Positions 11,639 through 52,400 of a DNA stretch of 64,000 nucleotides are shown here, one piece after another; positions within the stretch are counted from its first letter, which is position 1; every line of letters begins with the position of its first letter. The DNA comes from Acidobacteriota bacterium. Lineage in GTDB: Bacteria; Acidobacteriota; UBA890; WLXD01. Where the stretch lies: NCBI GenBank assembly GCA_963666055.2, contig CAXWPH010000006.1, positions 32,001 through 96,000 on the forward strand, in the 5' to 3' direction. The position numbers and the translations under genes are program-made. The notes under the pieces are model-generated. The model ran no database searches. It was not told where the DNA came from and saw nothing but the letters and a program-made list of their open reading frames with translations.

Positions 11639-13018
11639 ATGGAAACCCTGCAGGAAACGGCCGGCATTTGGTGGCTGCCGGATGCTCCGGATCGCTGCGT
11701 TCCGGGGCTCGTCAGCTTTTCGATCAACGACGGTTTCCGTCTACGATTACCGCTGGAAAATCTTGCGGAAGGCACAGCGCCGGACGCGGGCCCGTTCCAC
11801 GCGGACAGGTGCATTCACGGTCGGCTCCAAAACGGCAAGAAGGTCACGCTAGCGTCGCCCGACCGGGTAGCAAGTTACGTCGGCGTCCCCGGTGAAGAGT
11901 ACATGTGCGATGTGGGCTTTCTCGGCAAAGTCAACTGTTCGGCGGATCCCCAGATCGACCTGGCGAGAATCTCATACACCAACCTGAGAGAGTGGGCAGC
12001 TGAACATCCCCTGGACGTAACGTTCCACGAGGACCGCGCAGGTAGCCTCGGCCGTGTTGAGTACGAATACGAAGGGCTGCCCGCTCGGAAATTGGCAGCG
12101 GGCGGCGAATGGTCCATCGAGATCTGCCACACAACGACGCTTCCGGTGCCGAGCCCAGCAGGCGCTAACATTCGGCATGACTGCTACCTAGAAATTACCT
12201 TCGATCCGCCACGGGGTCTCTCTGACGCCGACGATCAACTGCACGGGCCACTGTGGCAGTTCGTTTCGTTCGCAATTGACAAACCTGTGGCCTGCAAGAG
12301 CCTCAAAGTCCGAGAAGCGCAAACGGGCGCATGGCTTGAGGTCAGGAGAGCTCAGTCAGAGATCCGGGAGGAGCGTGCAACGCCACTTGCCGCGATGATG
12401 CTCTTGCCGCTGCCGTCGTGCCTCGACCGGCAACCACGCCTCCTGGAGACGTGGCTCCACTTCCGAGGGGATCTTCGCCGAGCCGCTTCTCTGCTCTTTG
12501 GCTTGGGCAGGGAAGAACTGCTCATAGACTTGCGATTCCTGGCTGCCGTACAGGCCTTTGAAGCCATGGCACGGTCGATCGCAGATGAGTTCGAACTTGA
12601 GCAAGAGGAGTTCGCGAGGCGCCTAAGCGTAGTAGAACGGGCCCTTGGGGACGACAATAGGATCAGGCGGTGGGCCAAGCGAAAGCTCCAGCATGCCAAT
12701 CGAAAATCCGCAGACCATCTAGCACGCGAACTCTTGCGTTTCGTCGGAATATACGCGACCAAGCTAGTGCCGAGTGCAGACCGCTTCCTGAAGCAGATTC
12801 GTGAGAATCGAAACTTCTACACCCATCGCGATAGTCGTGGGAAGGAAGTCGTCCTTGAAGGCATTCCACACCACTTGCTCACGGAAGCCGTTATCTGTCT
12901 GCTCAAGGCAAGTCTCGTGCGCCACCTCGGATTCGGGCCGGAGGAGACAGCCGCCATTCTCGCCGATTGCCCGAAAGTTCAGCAGACTACGCGACGCGTC
13001 GCCGCGGAGTATCTATAG
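11639..13018 (+). CDS. ApeA-like protein: ApeA N-terminal domain + HEPN RNase (putative anti-phage)
   Basis: N-terminal GIWWLPD..VPGLVSF and IHGRLQNGKKVTL; C-terminal RFLAAVQAFEA and RNFYTH (RxxxxH HEPN motif). Confidence 0.82.
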   Translation: METLQETAGIWWLPDAPDRCVPGLVSFSINDGFRLRLPLENLAEGTAPDAGPFHADRCIHGRLQNGKKVTLASPDRVASYVGVPGEEYMCDVGFLGKVNCSADPQIDLARISYTNLREWAAEHPLDVTFHEDRAGSLGRVEYEYEGLPARKLAAGGEWSIEICHTTTLPVPSPAGANIRHDCYLEITFDPPRGLSDADDQLHGPLWQFVSFAIDKPVACKSLKVREAQTGAWLEVRRAQSEIREERATPLAAMMLLPLPSCLDRQPRLLETWLHFRGDLRRAASLLFGLGREELLIDLRFLAAVQAFEAMARSIADEFELEQEEFARRLSVVERALGDDNRIRRWAKRKLQHANRKSADHLARELLRFVGIYATKLVPSADRFLKQIRENRNFYTHRDSRGKEVVLEGIPHHLLTEAVICLLKASLVRHLGFGPEETAAILADCPKVQQTTRRVAAEYL

Positions 13019-13573
13019 ACCCGACCGAAGGAGCCCGCACTACGCTGCACGATGAGACCAGGGATCGAGGCACCATGGTCCAAGCTGCCGATCCCGGACC
13101 TGATCCCGCCACGCTGCGCCATCAGCACCATCTTCCGCACCGATCGATGTCGGCCTGCCACCGTGCCCAGTTACCACGATCGATTGCCACTGCCCTGCGT
13201 TCTCGGACAGCCCGAGCGACGCGCTGAAGCGTACCTCGTTGACGAACGGCCTGATCCCCGAAAACGGACACAGATGTAATCTCACGATCTGGGTCGATGA
13301 CGCCACCCAGAAATCGGCACCAGTCAGAGGTTTAGGATTCGATGTTCCGAAGCCTCCGGGTGCCAGCCCGTGGCGAGGCGCTGTTGTCGTACTGACTCAC
13401 GAGGGACCATTCGAGCTTCTCGCCGGTGTAGTGATCAACAGGTCCGTGACGCGGCACGCGGACGACGCGCCGCGGTCAGCTGCTGGCGCTTGATGCTTAT
13501 CAAGGCCCCCTCTTCAGAGGTACACACCAGCTAGCCTGGTGCTGTGCTGTCCACCGAGAGAGGAGGCCTCGAT

Positions 13574-14620
13574 ATGCGCTTCTACACTCAGCAACATCAG
13601 TATTACTGCGGCATCGATCTTCACACCAGAGTGATGTACGTCTGCGTGCTCGATGCCGCGGGCGACAAGCTCGTGCACCGCAACATTCCGGCCCGGGCAG
13701 CGCCGCTGCTGAAGCTGCTCGAGCCCTACCGCCCCGACGTCGTTGTCGGCGTGGAGTGCATGTTCACCTGGTACTGGATCGCCGATCTGTGCGAGGCGCA
13801 AGAGTTGCCGTTCGTACTCGGCCACGCCCTCTACATGAAGGCGGTCCATGGCGGCAAGGCGAAGAACGATCGGATCGACTCGCTGCAAATCGCCTCCATC
13901 CTCCGCGGCGGCAACTTCCCGCAGGCGTACGTATACCCACGGGCCATGCGCTCCACCCGTGATCTGCTGCGGCGCCGTACCCACTTCGTACGCAAGCGCG
14001 CTGAGCTACTCAGCCACATCCGCAACACCAACTCCCAGTACAACCTCCCCGACCTGACCCGCTCCCTGGCCCCCAAGGCCAACCGCGCCGATGTCGCCGA
14101 GCGGTTCGCCGATCCCTCCGTGGCTGCCAGTGTCCAACTGGACCTGGAGCTCATCGACACCTACGACCGGCTGATCACCGCCGTGGAGTTGAAGCTCATG
14201 CGCGCCGCCAAGCGCCACGACGCCAACGGAGTGCATCGGCTGCGCTCCATTCCCGGCGTCGGTAAGGTGCTGTCGCTGACCATCCTGTACGAGATCGGCG
14301 ACATCGGCCGCTTCGACCGCGTGCAGCAGTTCGCCTCGTACTGTCGCCTGGTGAAGCCGCAGCGCTCCTCGGCTGGCAAGCTCCAGGGTCATGCCAACTC
14401 CAAGATCGGCAACCCGCACCTGAAGTGGGCGTTCTCCGAGGCCGCCATCACCTTCATCCGCCACTGCCCCCAAGGGCGCCGGCTGTACGAGCGACTCGTC
14501 CGCAAGCACGGCAAGGGCAAGGGCAAGGCGCTCTCGGTGCTCGCTCACAAGCTCGCTCGAGCCGCCTACTTCATGCTCCGCAGACAGCAGACCTTCGACA
14601 TCGACAGGCTCGTGGCCTGA
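13574..14620 (+). CDS. IS110-family DEDD transposase/recombinase
   Basis: AGGAGG RBS; CGIDLH, VGVEC, KNDRID, SIPGVG, SSAGK, GNPHLK. Confidence 0.95.
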   Translation: MRFYTQQHQYYCGIDLHTRVMYVCVLDAAGDKLVHRNIPARAAPLLKLLEPYRPDVVVGVECMFTWYWIADLCEAQELPFVLGHALYMKAVHGGKAKNDRIDSLQIASILRGGNFPQAYVYPRAMRSTRDLLRRRTHFVRKRAELLSHIRNTNSQYNLPDLTRSLAPKANRADVAERFADPSVAASVQLDLELIDTYDRLITAVELKLMRAAKRHDANGVHRLRSIPGVGKVLSLTILYEIGDIGRFDRVQQFASYCRLVKPQRSSAGKLQGHANSKIGNPHLKWAFSEAAITFIRHCPQGRRLYERLVRKHGKGKGKALSVLAHKLARAAYFMLRRQQTFDIDRLVA

Positions 14621-14624
14621 TGGT

Positions 14625-15060
14625 AGGGCGGCGGGTGAGCCAGACGTCTAACGGGACGATCAGGGCCCAACCGACCAAGGTATGGTATCCATTCGGTGGC
14701 ACCGACCACGAACCCGACCGTACCGCGGTGACCGTGCCCGGAGCCCGCGCGCTTGATGGGACGCCCGCCGTCGCTGCCGCTACGCCAGATCCGTGGCGCT
14801 CTGCCCCTCACCCGAGCCTGCGCCTAACTGGAGAGTCGTCGCTGGCGGCTCATCCCTGCTCTTGAAGAGGCCGGCACGAGGGTACCGATTAGTTTCTAGG
14901 CCCGCGGGCGGTGCCGCCCGCTCCCGGCGTATCGTCGGGTGAGCCTCGATAGGTGTTGGGTGCAGACGCCTCTGCACCAGATCTTGAAACGAAGTCGGAG
15001 CCGGCGGATCTCGATGCAATCCAACCGCGGTAATCCTTCCGCGCTAGGACCGACTGTGCC
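14625..15060 (+). ncRNA. Putative bridge/seek RNA of the IS110 element
   Basis: Non-coding end with segments matching the left flank (GCGCTTGATG 14749-14758), the reverse complement of the right flank (CGCCTAAC 14821-14828) and the element end (ATAGGTG 14949-14955); RNA ends are approximate. Confidence 0.6.
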
Positions 15061-15086
15061 CTTGACCACCAGGGGCCTTATAGGTG

Positions 15087-15381
15087 TTAGGCGGCTGTTA
15101 ATGGCCGCCCCTGGTGAGGCGCGATCGACGTCATCGCCAGCACCTAGACCAACCACTTTCTGATACGGCCCTTGGTCGACACGGACGGACGTGATCCGAA
15201 ATAACTCCATCGACTCGGTGTTGCTCCCGAGGCGAAACGCATTCGACCTAGATTTGAAGAGCCGCGCCGTAGTGATCTTGTAAAACTCCGGCTTGATCAC
15301 CCTACCGAAAGGGTTTGTTAGCACAGAATTCGAACCGCGCCAGAGTGTCTTTTCCTTCGGCTTCTTGGAGAACAGACCCAT
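15087..15381 (-). pseudogene. Truncated bacterial PH-domain (bPH_2-like) gene
   Basis: GGAGG RBS; YKITTARL..MELFRITSVRVDQGPYQKVVGLG pattern, then similarity is lost and the frame runs into the IS end. Confidence 0.55.
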
Positions 15382-15465: not shown

Positions 15466-16695
15466 CTAGCTCACACCCTCGACCACAAACTCAAAAAGGT
15501 CCGCCTTCGACGTGCGCTTACGTATCGTCCGATAGGTTACTTGGTGGAATCCCGCCTCCCCGAAGATCGACACAAGCGCCTTTTCAGTCTCCACTAAGTG
15601 TCCGTAGAACGTGGAATTCCCCACTACGTAGTGAAACCTTCCTTTCGGAGCCATTACCGATCTGAGCGCCTGAGCATGGCGCCACATGTCAGAAAAGTAA
15701 CGCAGAACGTACGTCGACATTGCGGTTGCGCTCGGGACATCCTCCCTGCCGATCCGTTTCGCCACACTGCTGATCGTCGCAGGGACGAAGACATCGTGCG
15801 GGACAACCCAATCCGTCAGCCGAGACGTAGCCGCTCCCCACGTACCCCCGATCGCGTTCCAGTCAAGAACCCCGGCATCTGAAGGAGAGACCAAGTACCC
15901 CAACCAGTACATGAACGGTCGTAGCTCCCGAATCAATGACACACGATTAGGGTAGGGTGGAGACGTCGCAACGACGTCGATCGAGCCTCGATCGACGATG
16001 TCAAGCGTACGCGCGTCGCCAGTGCTCGTGGTTGGAGTGCGCTCAGGATTAACTGCCGCCGTCTCGAGAACGAAGCGCATGGCGTCCCCAAAGGGATCTT
16101 CCTCAAGCGGAAGCGACTCTTGGGCTGGTCCGTCGAACTGAAATGATAGCGACTGGTGCCGCGGTGTCAGGTTGGCCAGCTCGCCGACCACTCTGCAAAA
16201 GCCGACTAGCAAAAGGTCCCGGGCCTTGGCACCACACGGGGCGTTGGCGATGCCCGTCTTTGTCTTTCTAAGAAATAGGAGACGCTCGGGAGTCCACCAA
16301 CGCTCGATATTGTGGACGGGCGGCGCGCAGACCAGCGGCCGGCTGACCGCGCTATTCGTGACGATCGCGTCCATCACCTCGCGCGCCTCGCTCAGATCTT
16401 CGGAAGTGTACGTCGCGCACTTGGCTCGCGTGAGCCAGGACATGAACGGATTAATGTCAAGGCTTACTGCGTGTAGTCCCCGCGTGGCCGCGGCAAGCGC
16501 TGTCGTGCCGGTCCCCCCGAAAGGATCCAGAACAGTCGCATCAGCGGTTGTTTCTGCGAGCAGCTCTTCCGCAAGCGTTACTGAATACGCTGGCGCTACA
16601 CGGAGCCACCCGTGACGCCCCTTTTTCCTGTTATGACGCGATGTGTACTCCGGTCGCAACGTCAGCGGGGCAGGCAGGTTTCCTCGGCGTGGCAT
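15466..16695 (-). CDS. DNA methyltransferase, probably N4-cytosine, motif I before motif IV; no cognate endonuclease seen
   Basis: VLDPFGGTGTT (SAM binding), DINP, TSPPY (catalytic), YVVGNS. Confidence 0.88.
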   Translation of the reverse strand: MPRRGNLPAPLTLRPEYTSRHNRKKGRHGWLRVAPAYSVTLAEELLAETTADATVLDPFGGTGTTALAAATRGLHAVSLDINPFMSWLTRAKCATYTSEDLSEAREVMDAIVTNSAVSRPLVCAPPVHNIERWWTPERLLFLRKTKTGIANAPCGAKARDLLLVGFCRVVGELANLTPRHQSLSFQFDGPAQESLPLEEDPFGDAMRFVLETAAVNPERTPTTSTGDARTLDIVDRGSIDVVATSPPYPNRVSLIRELRPFMYWLGYLVSPSDAGVLDWNAIGGTWGAATSRLTDWVVPHDVFVPATISSVAKRIGREDVPSATAMSTYVLRYFSDMWRHAQALRSVMAPKGRFHYVVGNSTFYGHLVETEKALVSIFGEAGFHQVTYRTIRKRTSKADLFEFVVEGVS

Positions 16696-16709
16696 ATGCG
16701 TGTGCAGCT

Positions 16710-17438
16710 CTATATGGGCCTGCGGAGGCTTTTCATCTCCGCCAGCTGGGCCTTCACCCTGGCAAGTTCTCTGCGGCAGCCTCGTAGCGTCAGTCCATCA
16801 TCTTCAACAACGATTGTCGGCTGAGTCCCGGTCTCGAGTTGAAATACAGCGACAGCCTCGCTGAACCCCTTTGATCGGAACTCACCGATCGGCTGCCAAC
16901 GAGTGTGTGTTCTAGACGCCTCGCGGAACGCCGCTGAACAGAGAACGGCGCCAGCAACGCATTGCCCCATCAGCCGGGCGCACCGATCGACCACAGCGCC
17001 GTGAGGATCCTGCATGTGGAGTCCGGGTGAGGCGTCGGTGCCCTCGGACTCCGCCTGTCCGAAATCCAGAAGACTCACCGCGCCGTAGTCCATGGCGATC
17101 TTTACCCGGAACCGCTCCTCTTCGATCTCCTCACAGAAGCTCAACACTCGCTCAGCGGCCTGTTCGGCCGACAACACGGCGGCATTGCCGTCAAATGTCG
17201 CCATGACTTCGTCGCCAATGTACTTCACTACGCGCCCCGACGACTCTATTATCCGTGTCACTCCAAGCAGGAACTTAGCCAACCTCGGTAGCCATTCTTC
17301 TTCATTCGGGTGCTCCGTCTTGAACTCCGTGGATCCAGCTAGGTCCACGAACATCACCGCGAGCGTCTTCTGAGACCTGAGACTTTCAAGGTCCTCACTG
17401 ACGCGCTTAGCGAGCCTGACAATCTCCTGGAGTTCCAT
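16710..17438 (-). CDS. Class III adenylate/guanylate-type nucleotide cyclase, soluble single domain
   Basis: VMFVDLAGSTE, VVKYIGDEVMA, GAVVDRCARL, KGFSEAV; ATG at 17438 lies 1 bp after the upstream stop. Confidence 0.85.
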   Translation of the reverse strand: MELQEIVRLAKRVSEDLESLRSQKTLAVMFVDLAGSTEFKTEHPNEEEWLPRLAKFLLGVTRIIESSGRVVKYIGDEVMATFDGNAAVLSAEQAAERVLSFCEEIEEERFRVKIAMDYGAVSLLDFGQAESEGTDASPGLHMQDPHGAVVDRCARLMGQCVAGAVLCSAAFREASRTHTRWQPIGEFRSKGFSEAVAVFQLETGTQPTIVVEDDGLTLRGCRRELARVKAQLAEMKSLRRPI

Positions 17439-17439
17439 G

Positions 17440-19917
17440 CTATCGAACGGTGCTCCTGTGCTTGTTGGTCGCCTTTTTGAGGGCGTCGAGAAGCAACTTC
17501 TCCAGGTCAATCTGCGCCGCGAGTATTCGAGCCTTGCCGATCGCGTCCCGCACGCTTCCTGGAATGAATAGCCGCACAGTCCGAGAGAGGTTGTGGAACT
17601 CTTTCTTCAACGTCTCGATGAAAGGCGACCTGACGCTCCGAGTTGGATGCCCGTCGAGCGCGAGGTCGGCGACGAACACCGCGCCTATTTCCTGGTCGAG
17701 TGGCCGGCCGGGAATGTCCAGGAGCACGACTAGTTCATCTGCTTCGGGAGCATCCCGTAGGTCGGGGAAGATAGTGACCAAGTGTTCCGACAAGTACGTT
17801 GAAACCGCCGCTCGCTCCGTGTCGGACAAATCCTGCAGTAAGCTTACTATCTGCTGTCGTCGCTCTTCGTCGGTCGTTCCCTCCGCTCCCCAAGGTGCTC
17901 GCAAGCTCAAGAGTCTCTTGAACAGTCCTGCCCGCCTCGTTACGAGATCGCGCAGAATCGACGCCGCGCCGAAGGCTTCTTCGTAGCTCCTGTCCAGGTA
18001 GTCAAGGGCAGCCGCCTCGGTGAATGCCTGCGCCTCGTCAACGTACGTCTTAAGGCTCAGAGTTCCCTTATCTTTCAGGCACCGCAACACGTGCGTCACC
18101 ATCGCGCCTAGCGCCCGGTTGGTATGGTGCCAGTAGACTTGTCGGAAGTTCCAATACCTTGCCAGCAGGAGACTCTCGACGGCAGACAAGGCTTCCGGCC
18201 GAAAGCAGATGTGCCAGTTTTCGTCGCCGTCTCCGGGCTGCATCATGACGTCCGCCGCCGACAACAAAGTGCGCCTATCCACCCCCCGTCCAAAGGGAAC
18301 CCCAGTAGCTCGCGCGTCGCCCTGCACGTAGCACAGCTTGTCGATGTCAACACCGCTATCGAGGCTGGACCGGATTACTTGTTCTCGACCATCAGTCAGA
18401 TCGCGGTGGTCAGTAGTCAAGAGATCGATGATGATCGCCGGATCGGCGCCGGCGTTGTAGATGACGTCAGCTATGGTGGGGGAGCCTGTGCCGCCCGCGG
18501 GGACTTCGCTAATGAACAATCTGAAGAGGTTCAGCGGCTCGCCCGACGCGAGGTCTAGCTCCTGGCAGTAGTGTAGGAACGGAAAGTGATTGACATCGTG
18601 GAGTAGTGCACAGAGCAGGAATTTGGTCACGTCCAGCGTGTCGAACAGCCGTGTAAATCGCGGCGACCGAACGAAGCACTGAACGAGTTCGACAGCGGTC
18701 GAATACACCATCAGACTATGGTCGAATCGCGTCTGAGTCGCGCTGGGATACACAAAGTCCAGGAGGCTGAGCTGCTTGAGTTGCTGTAGCCGGCGGAAGC
18801 TCCGTGTCTCGATGATCCGCTCCACGAAGTCAGGCGCCAGGAACGCGGCCTCGCCGAGCGCAATTCGTCGCACTGGCTGCCCTGGGGCTAGCTGAGGCGC
18901 GTGTGGAGTGGCTGCGCCGGCCCAAAAGCCGGACTCCAGCTTGCGAATCTGCCCAAGTACTTCGCTCGTCCGCAGGGTGCTAGCCTGCGCCCAGGTCACG
19001 AGGGCCTGGGCGTGGAGGGTCAGGACCTCCCTATCCAACTCAGTGATGAGCGATGGCAACGGAGAGTCCTCGAGTAGTTCCTCAAACAACTTGCCAAGGT
19101 GATATAGGTCTAGACCTGGAAAGAGGAGGTCGCGAAGCGCTTCACGGGGGACAGCTTTAGGATCCTCGGCGAGGATGGGCTTGAGCAATTCTTCAAGCTC
19201 AGCCGGGGCATTGAGCAGCCTGAGCGGCCTTACACGGGTGGTCGGTACGCTTTCGATCAACGCGCTGTCAAAGGCCTGCGCATAGCCGAAGTCGATAAGT
19301 ACGGGCCTTCCCGAGGACGTTTCGATCAGCACGTTGTCGGATCGGAGGTCCGAATGCTGATGGAGCTTTGTCTCGTGGAGATAAGTGAGGGCCTCCAGTA
19401 TTTGAACAAGTACCGTGATGATCTTCGTCCGAATCGCGTCTCGTTCCGGAGAGGTGGCTTGGCTAGCTGACTCGTTCAGCTTGTTGATCCATTCAGAGAG
19501 AGAGTCGCCTTCGATATACCGCGTTACCAGAAACCTGACCTTGTCGTCCGCCGGCACGCGGAAGCCTGCCTCTTCGCCGAACACCACAATCGCATCTGAG
19601 ACCTCACCCCACCCAAGCACTCGTTGGATACCTGGATGATCGAGATCTCTCAGCGCGGCACGCTCCCTGTTGTATGCAAGTTCGTCGCCCTTATCCCAAA
19701 ACGACTGAGCGGTCGTGTCAAATAGGAAGAGCTCGTCGGGAATCAGGTAGAACTTGACGGCCACCGCCACCTGCTCATCGTCAAGGTCCTTGGCCAGATA
19801 GACGACGCCAGAAGAGCCAGAGCCGACCAGGGTTTCTACGCGGTACTCGTCACCGACATTTGTCTTAATTGTGCCGATTGGGACCCGAGGGCCGCTCCGT
19901 TCGTCCGCTTTCCCCAT
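17440..19917 (-). CDS. Ser/Thr protein kinase fused to SAMHD1-like HD dNTP triphosphohydrolase domain
   Basis: Kinase: GSGSSG, VAVK, HSDLRSDN, DFG, APAE, DLYHLG. HD: FRRLQQLKQL, VYPSATQTRFDHSL, ALLHDVNHFPFLH, DIDKLCY, ARYWNFRQVYWH. GGAGAG RBS. Confidence 0.88.
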   Translation of the reverse strand: MGKADERSGPRVPIGTIKTNVGDEYRVETLVGSGSSGVVYLAKDLDDEQVAVAVKFYLIPDELFLFDTTAQSFWDKGDELAYNRERAALRDLDHPGIQRVLGWGEVSDAIVVFGEEAGFRVPADDKVRFLVTRYIEGDSLSEWINKLNESASQATSPERDAIRTKIITVLVQILEALTYLHETKLHQHSDLRSDNVLIETSSGRPVLIDFGYAQAFDSALIESVPTTRVRPLRLLNAPAELEELLKPILAEDPKAVPREALRDLLFPGLDLYHLGKLFEELLEDSPLPSLITELDREVLTLHAQALVTWAQASTLRTSEVLGQIRKLESGFWAGAATPHAPQLAPGQPVRRIALGEAAFLAPDFVERIIETRSFRRLQQLKQLSLLDFVYPSATQTRFDHSLMVYSTAVELVQCFVRSPRFTRLFDTLDVTKFLLCALLHDVNHFPFLHYCQELDLASGEPLNLFRLFISEVPAGGTGSPTIADVIYNAGADPAIIIDLLTTDHRDLTDGREQVIRSSLDSGVDIDKLCYVQGDARATGVPFGRGVDRRTLLSAADVMMQPGDGDENWHICFRPEALSAVESLLLARYWNFRQVYWHHTNRALGAMVTHVLRCLKDKGTLSLKTYVDEAQAFTEAAALDYLDRSYEEAFGAASILRDLVTRRAGLFKRLLSLRAPWGAEGTTDEERRQQIVSLLQDLSDTERAAVSTYLSEHLVTIFPDLRDAPEADELVVLLDIPGRPLDQEIGAVFVADLALDGHPTRSVRSPFIETLKKEFHNLSRTVRLFIPGSVRDAIGKARILAAQIDLEKLLLDALKKATNKHRSTVR

Positions 19918-49456: not shown

Positions 49457-52400
49457 GAAGCCCGGTCGATCGCCCGCACTACCTCGCGATGAAACTCAAC
49501 CCGTGCCTCGATATGCTGCTGGTTCTCACGCGTCGGGTGCACGCGGTTGGTCAGCAAGATGACGAACAAACCGCGCCTCGGATCGATCCACATCGAGGTT
49601 CCGGTGAAACCAGTGTGGCCGTACGCGCTGGCATTGAACATCGACCAGCGCTGGCTGCGGCGCGCCGTATCCCACCCGAGGGCACGACTGCTGTCCGCGA
49701 CGATGTCCTGCGGCTTCCGCCAGCGATCGATGGTCGACCGCAACAGCACCCGATGATGATCGTAGCTGCCCAGGTTCAGCATCATCTGCGCGTAAGTCGC
49801 CAGATCCCGAGCGGTCGAAAACAGTCCGGCGTGGGGCGCCACGCCGCCCATCGCGTAGGCGTTCTCGTCGTGCACGGCGCCACGCACCATCGCACCACGC
49901 CACCCATCGTATTCGGTCGGGGGGATTCGTTGATGCTCGGAGGCCGGCGGATTCCACATCGTGTCGTACATCTCCAGCGGCTCGAAGAGCTCGCGCCGAG
50001 CATACTCCGCGAAAGGCTCGCCGAGCGCTCGGCTAAGAATCTCTCCGAGCAACACGATGCCGAGGTCGGAATAAGCGTACCGACTGCCCGCCGGTGCTTC
50101 CAACTCGGTCGCGTAGATCCTCTCGAGCACCGCGGCTCGTACCGCGGAACCCGCATCGCCAGGCGCGTAGTCGCGGAAGAACTCCACATACGCAGGCAAT
50201 CCAGAGGTGTGCGTCAAGAGGTGGCGAATCGTGACCGCCGATTTGTCGGCACCCTGAAACTCCGGCACCAGAGCTTGTACCGGATAGTCGAGCCGCAGCA
50301 TGCCGCGCTCGACGGCGCGCATTGCCACGGGTGTCGTCGCCACAACCTTGGTAACAGAGGCAAGGTCGAAGAGCGCATCGACGGGCATCGGCGGGGCGCC
50401 ATCGTCGTAACTCATCTTGCCTACGGCGCCTAGTCCGACCAGTCGGCGTCGATGCCCGACAGCGTAGACTGCGCCCGGGAACGCGCCGGCATCCACCCAG
50501 CGTTGCAGGGCCGCCGCAGCGGCCGTCAGGTCCACCGCATCGGCGCGGGGCGCGTCGCCGGCCGGCGCTCCGTAGACAACGTCTGCGGGCGGCGCAAGCT
50601 TGGCGTCGATGGCAACGCGTTGCTCGCCGTACCCGACAGGGTAGAGGCCGGGTACCGAGACCGGCAGCTTGCCGGTGACGGAAATCTCGCCGGTGACGGC
50701 GCGGGCCACCGCGCGTTGCAGCGGATCACTCCATCCGTAGACCGTCAAGATCGTCGAGGCCTGCGGAAACGCGGCAACAGCATAGGGGCTGCCGAGCGCT
50801 GCCACGATCGTCGGCACCTGCAGGTCGGCGAGCATCGCAGCGTACAGAGCCTGACGTCGCGGCAACCTGATGCGGCCGGTGCTCGTGCGTATGCGCACGC
50901 GAACCGCCAGGATCAACACTTTCGCCTTCGACGCGGCGGTAACGATCTCGGCGACCTCATCGCCCCGAGTTCGCCCATCGATCGACCGCGACGTGACGTT
51001 GGCTAACGGTACGCGCAAGGCGCTCACCAGTGCCGATATTGGCGCCGGCTGATCGTTGTCCGACACTCCGACCACCATGACGTTGTTCCAATCGCGGGCG
51101 TCCAAAGGCAGCAGCCCATTACGATCGCGCAGCAGTGTCACCGTGCGGTCCGAAACCTCCTGGGCGCGTTTCTGGTCGGAGGCCGGCGCGAAGTTCTCCG
51201 GAAGCGTCGCCAGCGGGGACGCGACGGTACCCTCGCGGAGCCCCAGTCGCATCTTGGCGCGCAACACGCCGCGTACAGCGTCATCAAGACGATCCCGGCT
51301 GAGATCCCCACCTTCGACAGCTCGGACGAGCGCCGCGTGGACGGCACGCGGGTTGGGCGGCAACAACACCACATCGGCGCCCGCCACCATCGCCTCGACG
51401 GCTGCCTGACCGGCCCACCAACGCCGCGAGATGCCACCCATCTCCATGGCGTCGGTAACCACCAGACCGCGAAAGCCGAGCTGCGTCCGTAGAAGATCCG
51501 TCAGCACCGCGTACGACAACGTCGCTGGCAAACTGCTGTCGGCAGTTAAGGCGGGCACCGCTATGTGCGCGGTCATGATGCTGGCCACCCCGGCATCGAT
51601 TGCGGCCCGGAAAGGGGCCAGCTCCACCGCTTGCAGCCGGCGGTTGTCGTGGTCCATCACAGGCAACGCGGTGTGCGAGTCGACCGCCGTGTCGCCGTGC
51701 CCGGGAAAGTGCTTGGCGGTTGCCAGGACCCCGCCTTGCTGCGCTCCACGTACGAACGCCGCCACCATACCGCTGACGTGATCTGGATCCTCACCGAAGG
51801 CACGCACGTTGATCACCGGGTTGCGCGGGTTGACGTTGACGTCAGCCACCGGTGCGAAGATCCAGTGCACCCCCAGCGCACGAGCATCGCGCCCACTAGC
51901 ACGTCCCATCCACTCGGCCGCGTCCGGATCGTAGGTGGCCCCGACCGCCATGGCAGTTGGAAACGGCACGGCACCGTCGATGCGAAAATTCGCTCCCCAC
52001 TCGAAGTCGGCGGCCACGATGAGTGGCAGATGGCCGGCGGCAGCTGCAGCTTCCTGCAGATCGTGTAGCAGTGCCGCCGCCTCGTAAGCTTGCGACCGGA
52101 AGAGGATCACACCTCCCAGAGCGAGATCCCTCACTAGCGACACCAGCTCGCGCCGGGCATTGTCATCGGCCGCGTAATACTCGCCGAAAGCCCGCACCAT
52201 GAGTACCTGGCCGACGCGGTCCTCGAGGCTCATGTGGGCGAGCGTGGCGTCGATCTCCGCTTCGGCGGCAGGCGAAAGCGGCACCCGAGGATCGATGGAT
52301 GGTGGCGCCGGACGCTGCAGCAGCGCGACCTCGACCACGACCGGACCCGCCGGCGCGGTGCCGCCGGCGCTCGCCAGGAGTATCAGCACGAAGGCGAGAC

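Follow-up and report, generated by a model that had tools for sequence, protein, structure and literature searches.

Among described systems, IS621 and the IS1111 elements with seekRNAs are closest to the element reported here. According to the accessible parts of the IS621 reports (PMC11208160, PMC11208158, PMC13626964), IS621 combines a recombinase of the DEDD and Tnp type with paired guides for the two strands and a 2-nt core; its target and donor modules are separate and its handshake dinucleotides are set for insertion. All of these features recur in our element, and we use the term handshake guide as it is defined for IS621 in the accessible text of PMC11208158.

The IS1111 seekRNAs of ISEc11 and ISPa11 are encoded in a non-coding region downstream of tnp, the elements carry sub-terminal repeats, and the match to the top strand lies 5' of the match to the bottom strand (PMC11187229, accessible part). 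In multi-loop donor regions of the IS1111 group the donor bases lie in a multi-way junction (PMC11208160, accessible part). Our element resembles them in all these respects. The published IS1111 seekRNA ends are about 260–275 nt long and have one pair of target matches, and no second target-type loop is described in the accessible part of PMC11187229.

One subset of these elements, the IS1111-attC group (ISKpn4, ISPst6, ISPa25, ISPa21), inserts close to the 5' end of integron attC sites, antisense to the cassettes (PMC3001079, accessible part). Several predicted donor loops, with no conserved second target-type loop, are reported for one IS110 locus in the accessible text of 10.64898/2026.08.14.744561. 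We found no RNA with two target loops in the accessible text of the literature, including that of 10.1101/2025.05.14.653916, 10.1101/2024.01.24.577089, 10.64898/2026.04.29.721476 and 10.64898/2026.10.21.760802.

Here we analyze an element from a stretch of 64,000 nucleotides of an Acidobacteriota genome (below, the window), whose long non-coding end is predicted to encode a guide RNA with three loops. An earlier note on this DNA had proposed that two of the loops recognize two target variants.

The element, its ends and its attC-like target

Comparison with homolog ends placed the element at 13493–15086, one copy of the TG core counted in. The left ends of homologs read TG-AT-N, with ATA in 75, ATC in 12, ATG in five, ATT in four and ACT in three of 99 loci, and the right ends read ATA(A/G)G-TG-TT. 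Since G is third at only 5 of the 99 left ends, the core is the first TG, at 13491–92. The core at 13494–95 and the empty site GCGCTTGA-TG-TTAGGCG given in the earlier note were therefore replaced; the corrected empty site is GCGCT-TG-TTAGGCG. Of the bases in the 10/10 match at the left junction, five are flank, two are the core and three are those with which the element begins.

The recombinase carries D15, E61, D99 and D102 and a serine pair at 265–266, all placed by motif, and its gene is single-copy in the 5.7-Mb genome. The non-coding ends measure 81 nt on the left and 464 nt on the right, the long one being downstream of tnp, and a sub-terminal inverted repeat pair is formed by AAGGCCCC (13502–09) and GGGGCCTT (15072–79), with equivalents in homologs. 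These repeats and the lengths of the two ends make the element IS1111-type by the criteria in the accessible part of PMC11208160. By the sequence features tested, it is thus a member of the IS110 family, IS1111 group.

TTGAC precedes the right ends of homologs, in a comparison where TTGAC was also part of the end filter, and a possible –10 spans the circle junction by eye; scanning the linear form of the element revealed neither a promoter nor a terminator. Neither a circle junction nor an empty site was among the matches listed for the contigs of seven runs, where near-identical and ~96% identical relatives of the element were present. The host genome itself contains no other copy or empty site beyond an 83-nt remnant of the right terminus (G000:C15:421921–422003), which is 89% identical, has no guide loops and is located upstream of a gene that looks kinase-like by eye. 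A viral scan for the element found none, and no RNA run was listed as containing this stretch.

Read on the minus strand, the rebuilt empty site is GCCTAAC-AAGCG-CCAGCAGC... and lies directly at the end of the small ORF interrupted by the element. This ORF, whose similarity to PF03703 (bPH_2) has E=0.014 and is below the cut-off, stops just inside the attC-like arm when translated through the rebuilt site. The names R'', R' and L'' are the attC boxes to which we take the pieces at 13433–13490 and 15087–15093 to correspond. An attC-like partner arm was found at 64 of 86 element sites, the window's own among them, and CG-TT stands at the far end of the site in 54 of the 86 examined. Where the attC-like alignments are clear, the extra bases sit on the element-proximal arm. 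The element lies at the 5' end of the attC-like site, in antisense orientation relative to the array.

It should be mentioned that the attC scan of the window revealed no clean array and that the genome has no intact integron integrase; a stop-containing fragment is present on C10 only. This is the C-terminal part of an integron integrase (G000:C10, ~50400–51500), and a small gene pair next to it has the look of a PemK/MazF-type toxin–antitoxin system by eye. Unoccupied attC-like hairpins ending in TTGTTAGGC were noted at G000:C5:49984, C15:773827, C15:780853 and C10:91851.

The target of ISKpn4 likewise reads ...TTGTTAG on the strand of the element, and ISKpn4 is inserted 5 nt to the left of the core used by the window element, at AA*CGAATTGTTAG (PMC13604230, accessible part). 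Its non-coding end is ~260 nt long and ends in CATATG (PMC11187229, accessible part), unlike that of the window element by eye. On this comparison with ISKpn4, by insertion point and, by eye, by non-coding end, we do not file the element in the IS1111-attC group. None of the named members of that group was among the matches listed in two plasmid searches.

Several features of the neighborhood were also noted. To the left of the attC-like site, 13250–13376 is a repeated piece with high run depth and eight other partial copies in the genome (one of 127 nt), which looks like the remnant of a mobile-element end and is presumably IS3-like. Further left lies a defence-like ApeA-HEPN gene (11639–13018, plus strand). 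On the right, 15466–19917 (minus strand) carries further defence-like neighbors, namely a DNA methyltransferase, an ORF that is cyclase-like by eye (no Pfam match) and a kinase-HD fusion.

Table 1. Coordinates of the element, its predicted guide RNA and its target in the window
Feature	Position	Strand	Evidence or remarks
Left piece of degenerate attC-like site	13433-13490	-	R'-like end 13433-39, L'' arm, left target GCGCT 13486-90
Left TG core copy	13491-13492	+	TG-AT kept at homolog left ends
Short left end, 81 nt	13493-13573	+	Begins with AT (handshake bases); putative -10 half of junction promoter
IS110-family DEDD recombinase, 348 aa	13574-14620	+	Pfam PF01548 E=2e-15, PF02371 E=1.3e-21
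Loop 1 hairpin, likely site-choosing target loop	14622-14778	+	Fold, stem covariation, guide-flank covariation
Loop 1 guides	Top-strand 14645-52, bottom-strand 14749-55	+	Handshake AT 14756-57
Loop 2 arm, second target-type loop	14805-14882	+	Compensatory stems; core-proximal letters follow target class
Loop 2 guides	14821-28, 14858-64	+	Handshake position AA 14865-66
Donor module	14887-14957	+	Left-end guide 14887-96, inner stem 14898-14946
Donor right-end guide ATAGGTG	14949-55	+	Handshake TT 14956-57
3' hairpin and conserved GAAAC-N-AAGTCGG segment	14959-14999	+	Hairpin 14959-78, segment 14986-99; predicted closed state
Right terminus	15062-15084	+	TTGACC (predicted -35 of circle-junction promoter), GGGGCCTT 15072-79, ATAGG
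Right TG core copy	15085-15086	+	Homolog right ends
Right target TTAGGCG, R'' inverse core of attC-like site	15087-15093	+	Site read on minus strand
Cassette-like ORF, 3' end interrupted by element	15087-15381	-	Weak bPH_2 similarity

Three guide-like modules in the right end

All the guide motifs quoted in the earlier note were confirmed: GCGCTTGATG at 13486 and 14749, CGCCTAAC at 14821 (the reverse complement of 15086–15093), CGTCTAAC at 14645, GCTCTTGAAG at 14858, ATAGGTG at 14949 and 15080, and GATTAG at 14887. The GAG(CC) motif that it placed ahead of most segments also holds, GAGCC preceding four of the six (14637, 14741, 14814, 14941). In 5000 dinucleotide shuffles of 14621–15070, an exact 9-nt match to the left junction arose in 0.42%, an exact 8-nt match to the right flank in 1.2% and an exact 9-nt match to the right junction in 0.08%. 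The right-flank 8-mer had two near copies in 2.7% of shuffles, and the left 9-mer had two in 15.6%. Near copies being this common, the variant copies taken alone are weak evidence, and it is their conservation in homologs that carries them. An Rfam search gave no match up to E=1; the unconstrained fold is modestly stable only (z –1.72), and keeping all guides open costs 14–21 kcal/mol in the fold.

Loci were gathered from genomes (80), metagenomes (80) and relatives (three), their proteins being 52–70% identical. Of 163 loci with a match, the window included, 146 had enough downstream DNA. All six guide anchors scored above 3 bits in 109 of the 146, with profiles built from part of the same set, and the three modules recurred in 115 of 146 by thresholds set for loops 1 and 2. 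Eight of the 115 were left out because an anchor was not fixable, leaving 107 for analysis. Eighteen of the 31 failing loci were listed: in 14 soil relatives an unrelated ORF comes after loop 1, and the other four have divergent three-loop ends. In the soil subclade (L092, L096, L105, L107, L109, L112, L116, L123, L130, L131, L135, L140, L148, L149) a short ORF resembling the start of a helix-turn-helix transposase stands in place of loops 2 and 3. Cultured three-loop members are found on plasmids of Vibrio campbellii (L173, NC_022271.1) and Alteromonas macleodii (L174, NZ_OX359242.1). A copy search in 15 multi-copy genomes added few new sites, and searches by class and phylum added little.

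Compensatory pairs were revealed among 71 sequences in each module: 14630:14769 and 14636:14763 in the stem of loop 1; 14809:14878, 14817:14870 and 14819:14868 in that of loop 2; and 14901:14943 in the inner stem of the donor module. In the RNAalifold consensus of 34 sequences, 10 of 19 pairs showed changes on both sides. The match to the top strand precedes that to the bottom strand in loop 1 (14645–52, 14749–55) as well as in loop 2 (14821–28, 14858–64).

The handshake positions of the three modules are different. In loop 1 they read AT, the usual element start, in 104 of 107 homologs; AT after TG in this guide being the start of the element, it is a handshake guide. In the donor guide TT, the start of the right target, occupies them in 98 of 104. 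In loop 2 they read AA in 35, AG in 33, AC in 21, AT in 14 and otherwise in four (n=107).

Conservation and compensatory stems thus support a three-loop guide RNA of IS1111 type with two target-type loops and a donor module, as the earlier note had suggested, and not the arrangement of IS621 with exactly one target and one donor loop. Further differences from IS621 are the location of the RNA in the right end, the opposite orientation of the target, the TG core, the 464-nt non-coding end, and a donor module with competing 3' pairing beside the third guide-like loop. Judged by these sequence features, the predicted RNA would work as a bridge/seek RNA but is not of the two-loop type.

For the donor module, within-clade covariation with the element end was seen for the right-end guide (p=0.0002); the left-end guide covaries with the element between clades only. 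This left-end guide could form seven pairs and one wobble over 10 positions, made up of the core G and the nine bases that open the element; position +2 is mismatched in each of the 65 homologs scored. The conserved segment at 14986–99 can pair over the core-proximal half of this left-end guide and with 14800–03. The helix 14892–96:14986–90 is paired in 94–100% of 71 sequences with compensatory changes (within-clade p=0.02), and many outgroup elements have a similar helix over the guide in other letters. A pseudoknot reading of this helix was dropped, for it fits the nested fold.

Two folds of this region were compared. In one, 14800–04:14962–66 is closed and the left-end guide is free; in the other, 14800–03:14996–99 is closed together with the hairpin 14959–78, and the guide is hidden. 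The energy difference between them is 1.0 ± 3.0 kcal/mol across 70 homologs, in 43 of which the closed fold is the lower one. Position 14800 covaries with 14966 and 14999 between clades only (within-clade p 0.92 and 0.17), so that a two-state switch is a lead and not a result. The modelled folds thus make it possible that the 3' segment over the donor guide acts as a switch.

Loops 1 and 2 and the insertion site

Covariation with the flanks was scored with one element per 93% cluster and with global and within-clade permutations. For the bottom-strand guide of loop 1, the mean match to its own left flank was 3.22 of six positions; global permutations gave 2.11 and within-clade permutations 2.68, and the observed value was not attained in any of 5000 (n=69). 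For loop 2 the match to the left flank was 2.30, against 1.89 globally (p=0.0004) and 2.21 within clades (p=0.10). Matches to the right flank showed a marginal excess for loop 1, 3.48 against 3.32 (p=0.04 in global and 0.08 in within-clade permutations); the values for loop 2 were 2.05 against 2.19 (n=56). With both arms taken together within clades (n=50), loop 1 scored 6.47 against 5.88 of 10, a value reached in none of 3000 permutations, whereas loop 2 did not predict the site (4.40 against 4.32 of 10, p=0.24).

Direct comparison of the two loops gave the same picture. Loop 1 was the better-fitting loop at 58 of 65 sites and loop 2 at five, with two ties. The letters of loops 1 and 2 disagree at 486 positions; there the flank agrees with loop 1 in 267 cases, with loop 2 in 73 and with neither in 146. 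None of the 31 elements whose loop 2 spells GTTAGT is in a TTAGT site, and none of the 13 with GTTGT is in such a site. Many sites fit loop 1 at just 4–6 of 10 positions. Sites with a poor fit to loop 1 are not rescued by loop 2, whose mean residual was 0.05 at 19 such sites and 0.51 at the rest. A reading in which loop 2 is directed at the distant R' arm of the occupied attC was also rejected (p 0.14–0.69, n=50).

Thus, it is likely from these comparisons that loop 1 chooses the insertion site. The expectation that the guides covary with flanks and ends was borne out for the left-flank guide of loop 1 and the right-end donor guide, and not for loop 2 within clades. At the family level we reject loop 2 as an independent address, since flanks follow loop 1, and recognition of two target variants has no family-wide support, as loop 2 has no within-clade site prediction. 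It should be mentioned that CGTCTAAC, which the earlier note regarded as a variant copy, is the commonest loop 1 guide (45 of 107) and pairs with the window target via one U:G wobble.

The window element itself is unusual. Its loop 2 fits its own site at nine of 10 positions, the highest value among 69 (the next being seven), and its loop 1 scores 9.5 of 10 there. For the two closest relatives scored, loops 2 and 1 gave 6 and 6.5 in L023 and 7 and 4 in L164. In addition, at C15:1867118 the genome has a free site that is a single wobble short of a full match to loop 2. Loop 2 may therefore act as a local second address in the window element and these two relatives, though three elements are too few for more than that. 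A natural reprogramming of loop 1 to GTTTCGAG was found in L047, L048 and L053, with sites TTCCGG or TTTCGA, and loop 2 of these elements keeps the attC-like GTTAGGTG despite the change.

On average loop 2 is more open than loop 1 (0.63 against 0.45), and AAC and TG are almost invariant in it. A loop 2 zipped on itself was rejected as a general feature, as it is seen in one clade only, an Acidobacteria clade in which loop 2 is partly self-paired and has no attC match.

An outgroup was assembled from 30 loci found as plasmid matches 32–37% identical to the window protein, plus their relatives; one outgroup recombinase, compared directly, was 33% identical to that of the window. Four loci were passed over, loop 2 could not be parsed in three, and two near-duplicates were removed; 18–19 with the needed flank were kept. 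The outgroup shares the three-loop layout and has TG|TC.. or TG|AC.. targets that are not attC. Among elements with a family label, L175 (ISGsu4 family in the plasmid record) has a 33% identical recombinase and shares the three-loop layout, the TG core and the anti-guide helix; it differs in its TG|TC.. or TG|AC.. non-attC targets, in its shorter loops and in a loop 2 without the donor handshake. We also noted that the right flanks of L225, L236, L238 and L243 carry short tandem repeats starting with their target sequence, and that in the right end of L248 a natural deletion fuses the 5' guide of loop 1 to the hairpin of loop 2, giving a two-loop RNA.

The core-proximal letters of the outgroup loop 2 matched their own flanks at 2.58 against 2.13 of three positions (n=19) and, in the second core-proximal set, at 1.67 against 1.10 of two (n=18), both with p<=0.0002 in permutations that were global only, so that relatedness inflates their significance; further out the match was weak (p 0.02–0.03). 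On a scale of six, the ingroup loop 2 scored 4.43 with its own sites and 1.28 with those of the outgroup; the outgroup loop 2 scored 4.84 with its own sites and 1.94 with those of the ingroup. In the outgroup, the handshake is identical to the start of the element in 19 of 21 cases for loop 1 and in 0 of 18 for loop 2. Comparison of the two groups thus revealed that: (i) the core-proximal letters of loop 2 shift with the target class (TG|TTAG, TG|TC.. and TG|AC..); (ii) loop 2 is unlike loop 1 in its hairpin and in the bases that immediately follow TG. By these comparisons of sequence, loop 2 is reprogrammed with the target class and not with individual sites. Copying from loop 1 appears the weaker account of its target likeness, because the neighboring bases and the hairpins differ.

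Possible roles of loop 2

We tentatively favor, at somewhat less than even confidence, a three-loop RNA in which loop 1 reads the site, loop 3 reads the element's own ends, and loop 2 reads the core-adjacent target bases at another step, probably excision. By comparison with IS621 and ISEc11, the element would leave as a circle, whose junction would join the TTGACC at 15062 to the –10; the RNA would be made with or after the tnp message. Each loop would take one recombinase dimer. By analogy, the dimer on loop 1 would open the R'' end of attC and that on the donor module would hold the circle junction, the strands would be exchanged at TG, and the handshakes of loops 1 and 3 would favor insertion. 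The segment 14986–99, folded over the left-end guide, would gate donor binding.

In excision, loop 2, lying beside the donor module, would read both junctions with a short register. It would have to fit whichever attC is occupied, and only the core-proximal bases that attC sites share would then be selected. It would also make fewer handshake pairs to the first bases of the element, easing excision as in IS621, where handshake pairing before strand exchange lowers excision (PMC13626964, accessible part); for ISEc11, movement is reported to need the flanking target (PMC11187229, accessible part).

Several observations count against a role in excision. The donor loop of IS621 alone can drive excision (PMC13626964 and 10.64898/2026.08.31.748434, accessible parts), in which case a loop of target type may not be needed for this step. 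Neither a circle junction nor an empty site was among the matches listed for the seven runs. In 103 of 107 ingroup elements the first handshake base of loop 2 is still A, which makes the net handshake change on excision equal to that of loop 1, and the excision-optimal handshake, TT, is not seen as a class in the 107 ingroup elements. The fit of the window loop 2 to its whole site is more than a short register needs. The soil relatives without loops 2 and 3, the self-paired Acidobacteria clade and the unchanged GTTAGGTG speak against it as well. The fuller version, in which a widespread IS1111 lineage splits targeting between a precise insertion loop and a short-register excision loop lacking the full donor handshake and the 3' anti-guide segment adds a switch, we regard as doubtful.

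The retained first handshake base would also be expected of a loop that helps insertion, by placing an extra recombinase dimer on the shared core, or of a spare loop that serves as a specificity reservoir without fixing the site. Such a loop would track the target class just as well, the modest fit of many sites to loop 1 would leave room for it, the likeness between loops 1 and 2 of the same element (4.73 of 10, against 4.42 in within-clade shuffles) agrees with it, and so does the deletion in L248. This is rather unlikely, however, given that loop 2 scores no higher where loop 1 fits poorly, that it does not match the far R' arm, and that the outgroup loop 2 has no insertion handshake. The absence of within-clade covariation with the flanks would be explained if loop 2 were a structural arm or recombinase scaffold derived from loop 1 by duplication, with no DNA binding and a likeness due to ancestry or copying. 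Its strongly conserved stems, their joining to the donor module and the partial self-pairing in one clade fit this view, which we consider unlikely, as the core-proximal letters change in step with three target classes, the bases after TG and the hairpins are unlike those of loop 1, and copying should have brought the neighboring bases along. Nor are these core-proximal letters a protein-binding motif shared by all loops, the donor loop having others at these places.

The model of the earlier note, with loops 1 and 2 as equal addresses for two target variants, each directing insertion, draws on the window element itself, where both loops fit the site, on L023 and L164 with their nearly equal or better loop 2, and on the unoccupied site at C15:1867118. 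It is improbable for the family, in view of the few discriminating positions and sites at which loop 2 prevails and of the elements never found in the site spelled by their own loop 2.

Bridge recombinases are under development for genome editing, and excision against the strong insertion bias is described as unsolved in the accessible part of PMC13626964. If the favored reading is true and loop 2 serves excision, the direction of recombination would be set by the loop used, a natural design for directional control and a natural answer to the ~2,000-fold insertion bias of IS621. If loop 2 is instead a second address in this sub-lineage, two sites could be within reach of a single RNA. In addition, the lineage seems to have come to the integron attC at another base than the described IS1111-attC elements, which bears on the disruption of cassette arrays. 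A third loop that is conserved, changes along with the target and yet does not appear to choose the site may offer a handle on how these elements excise.
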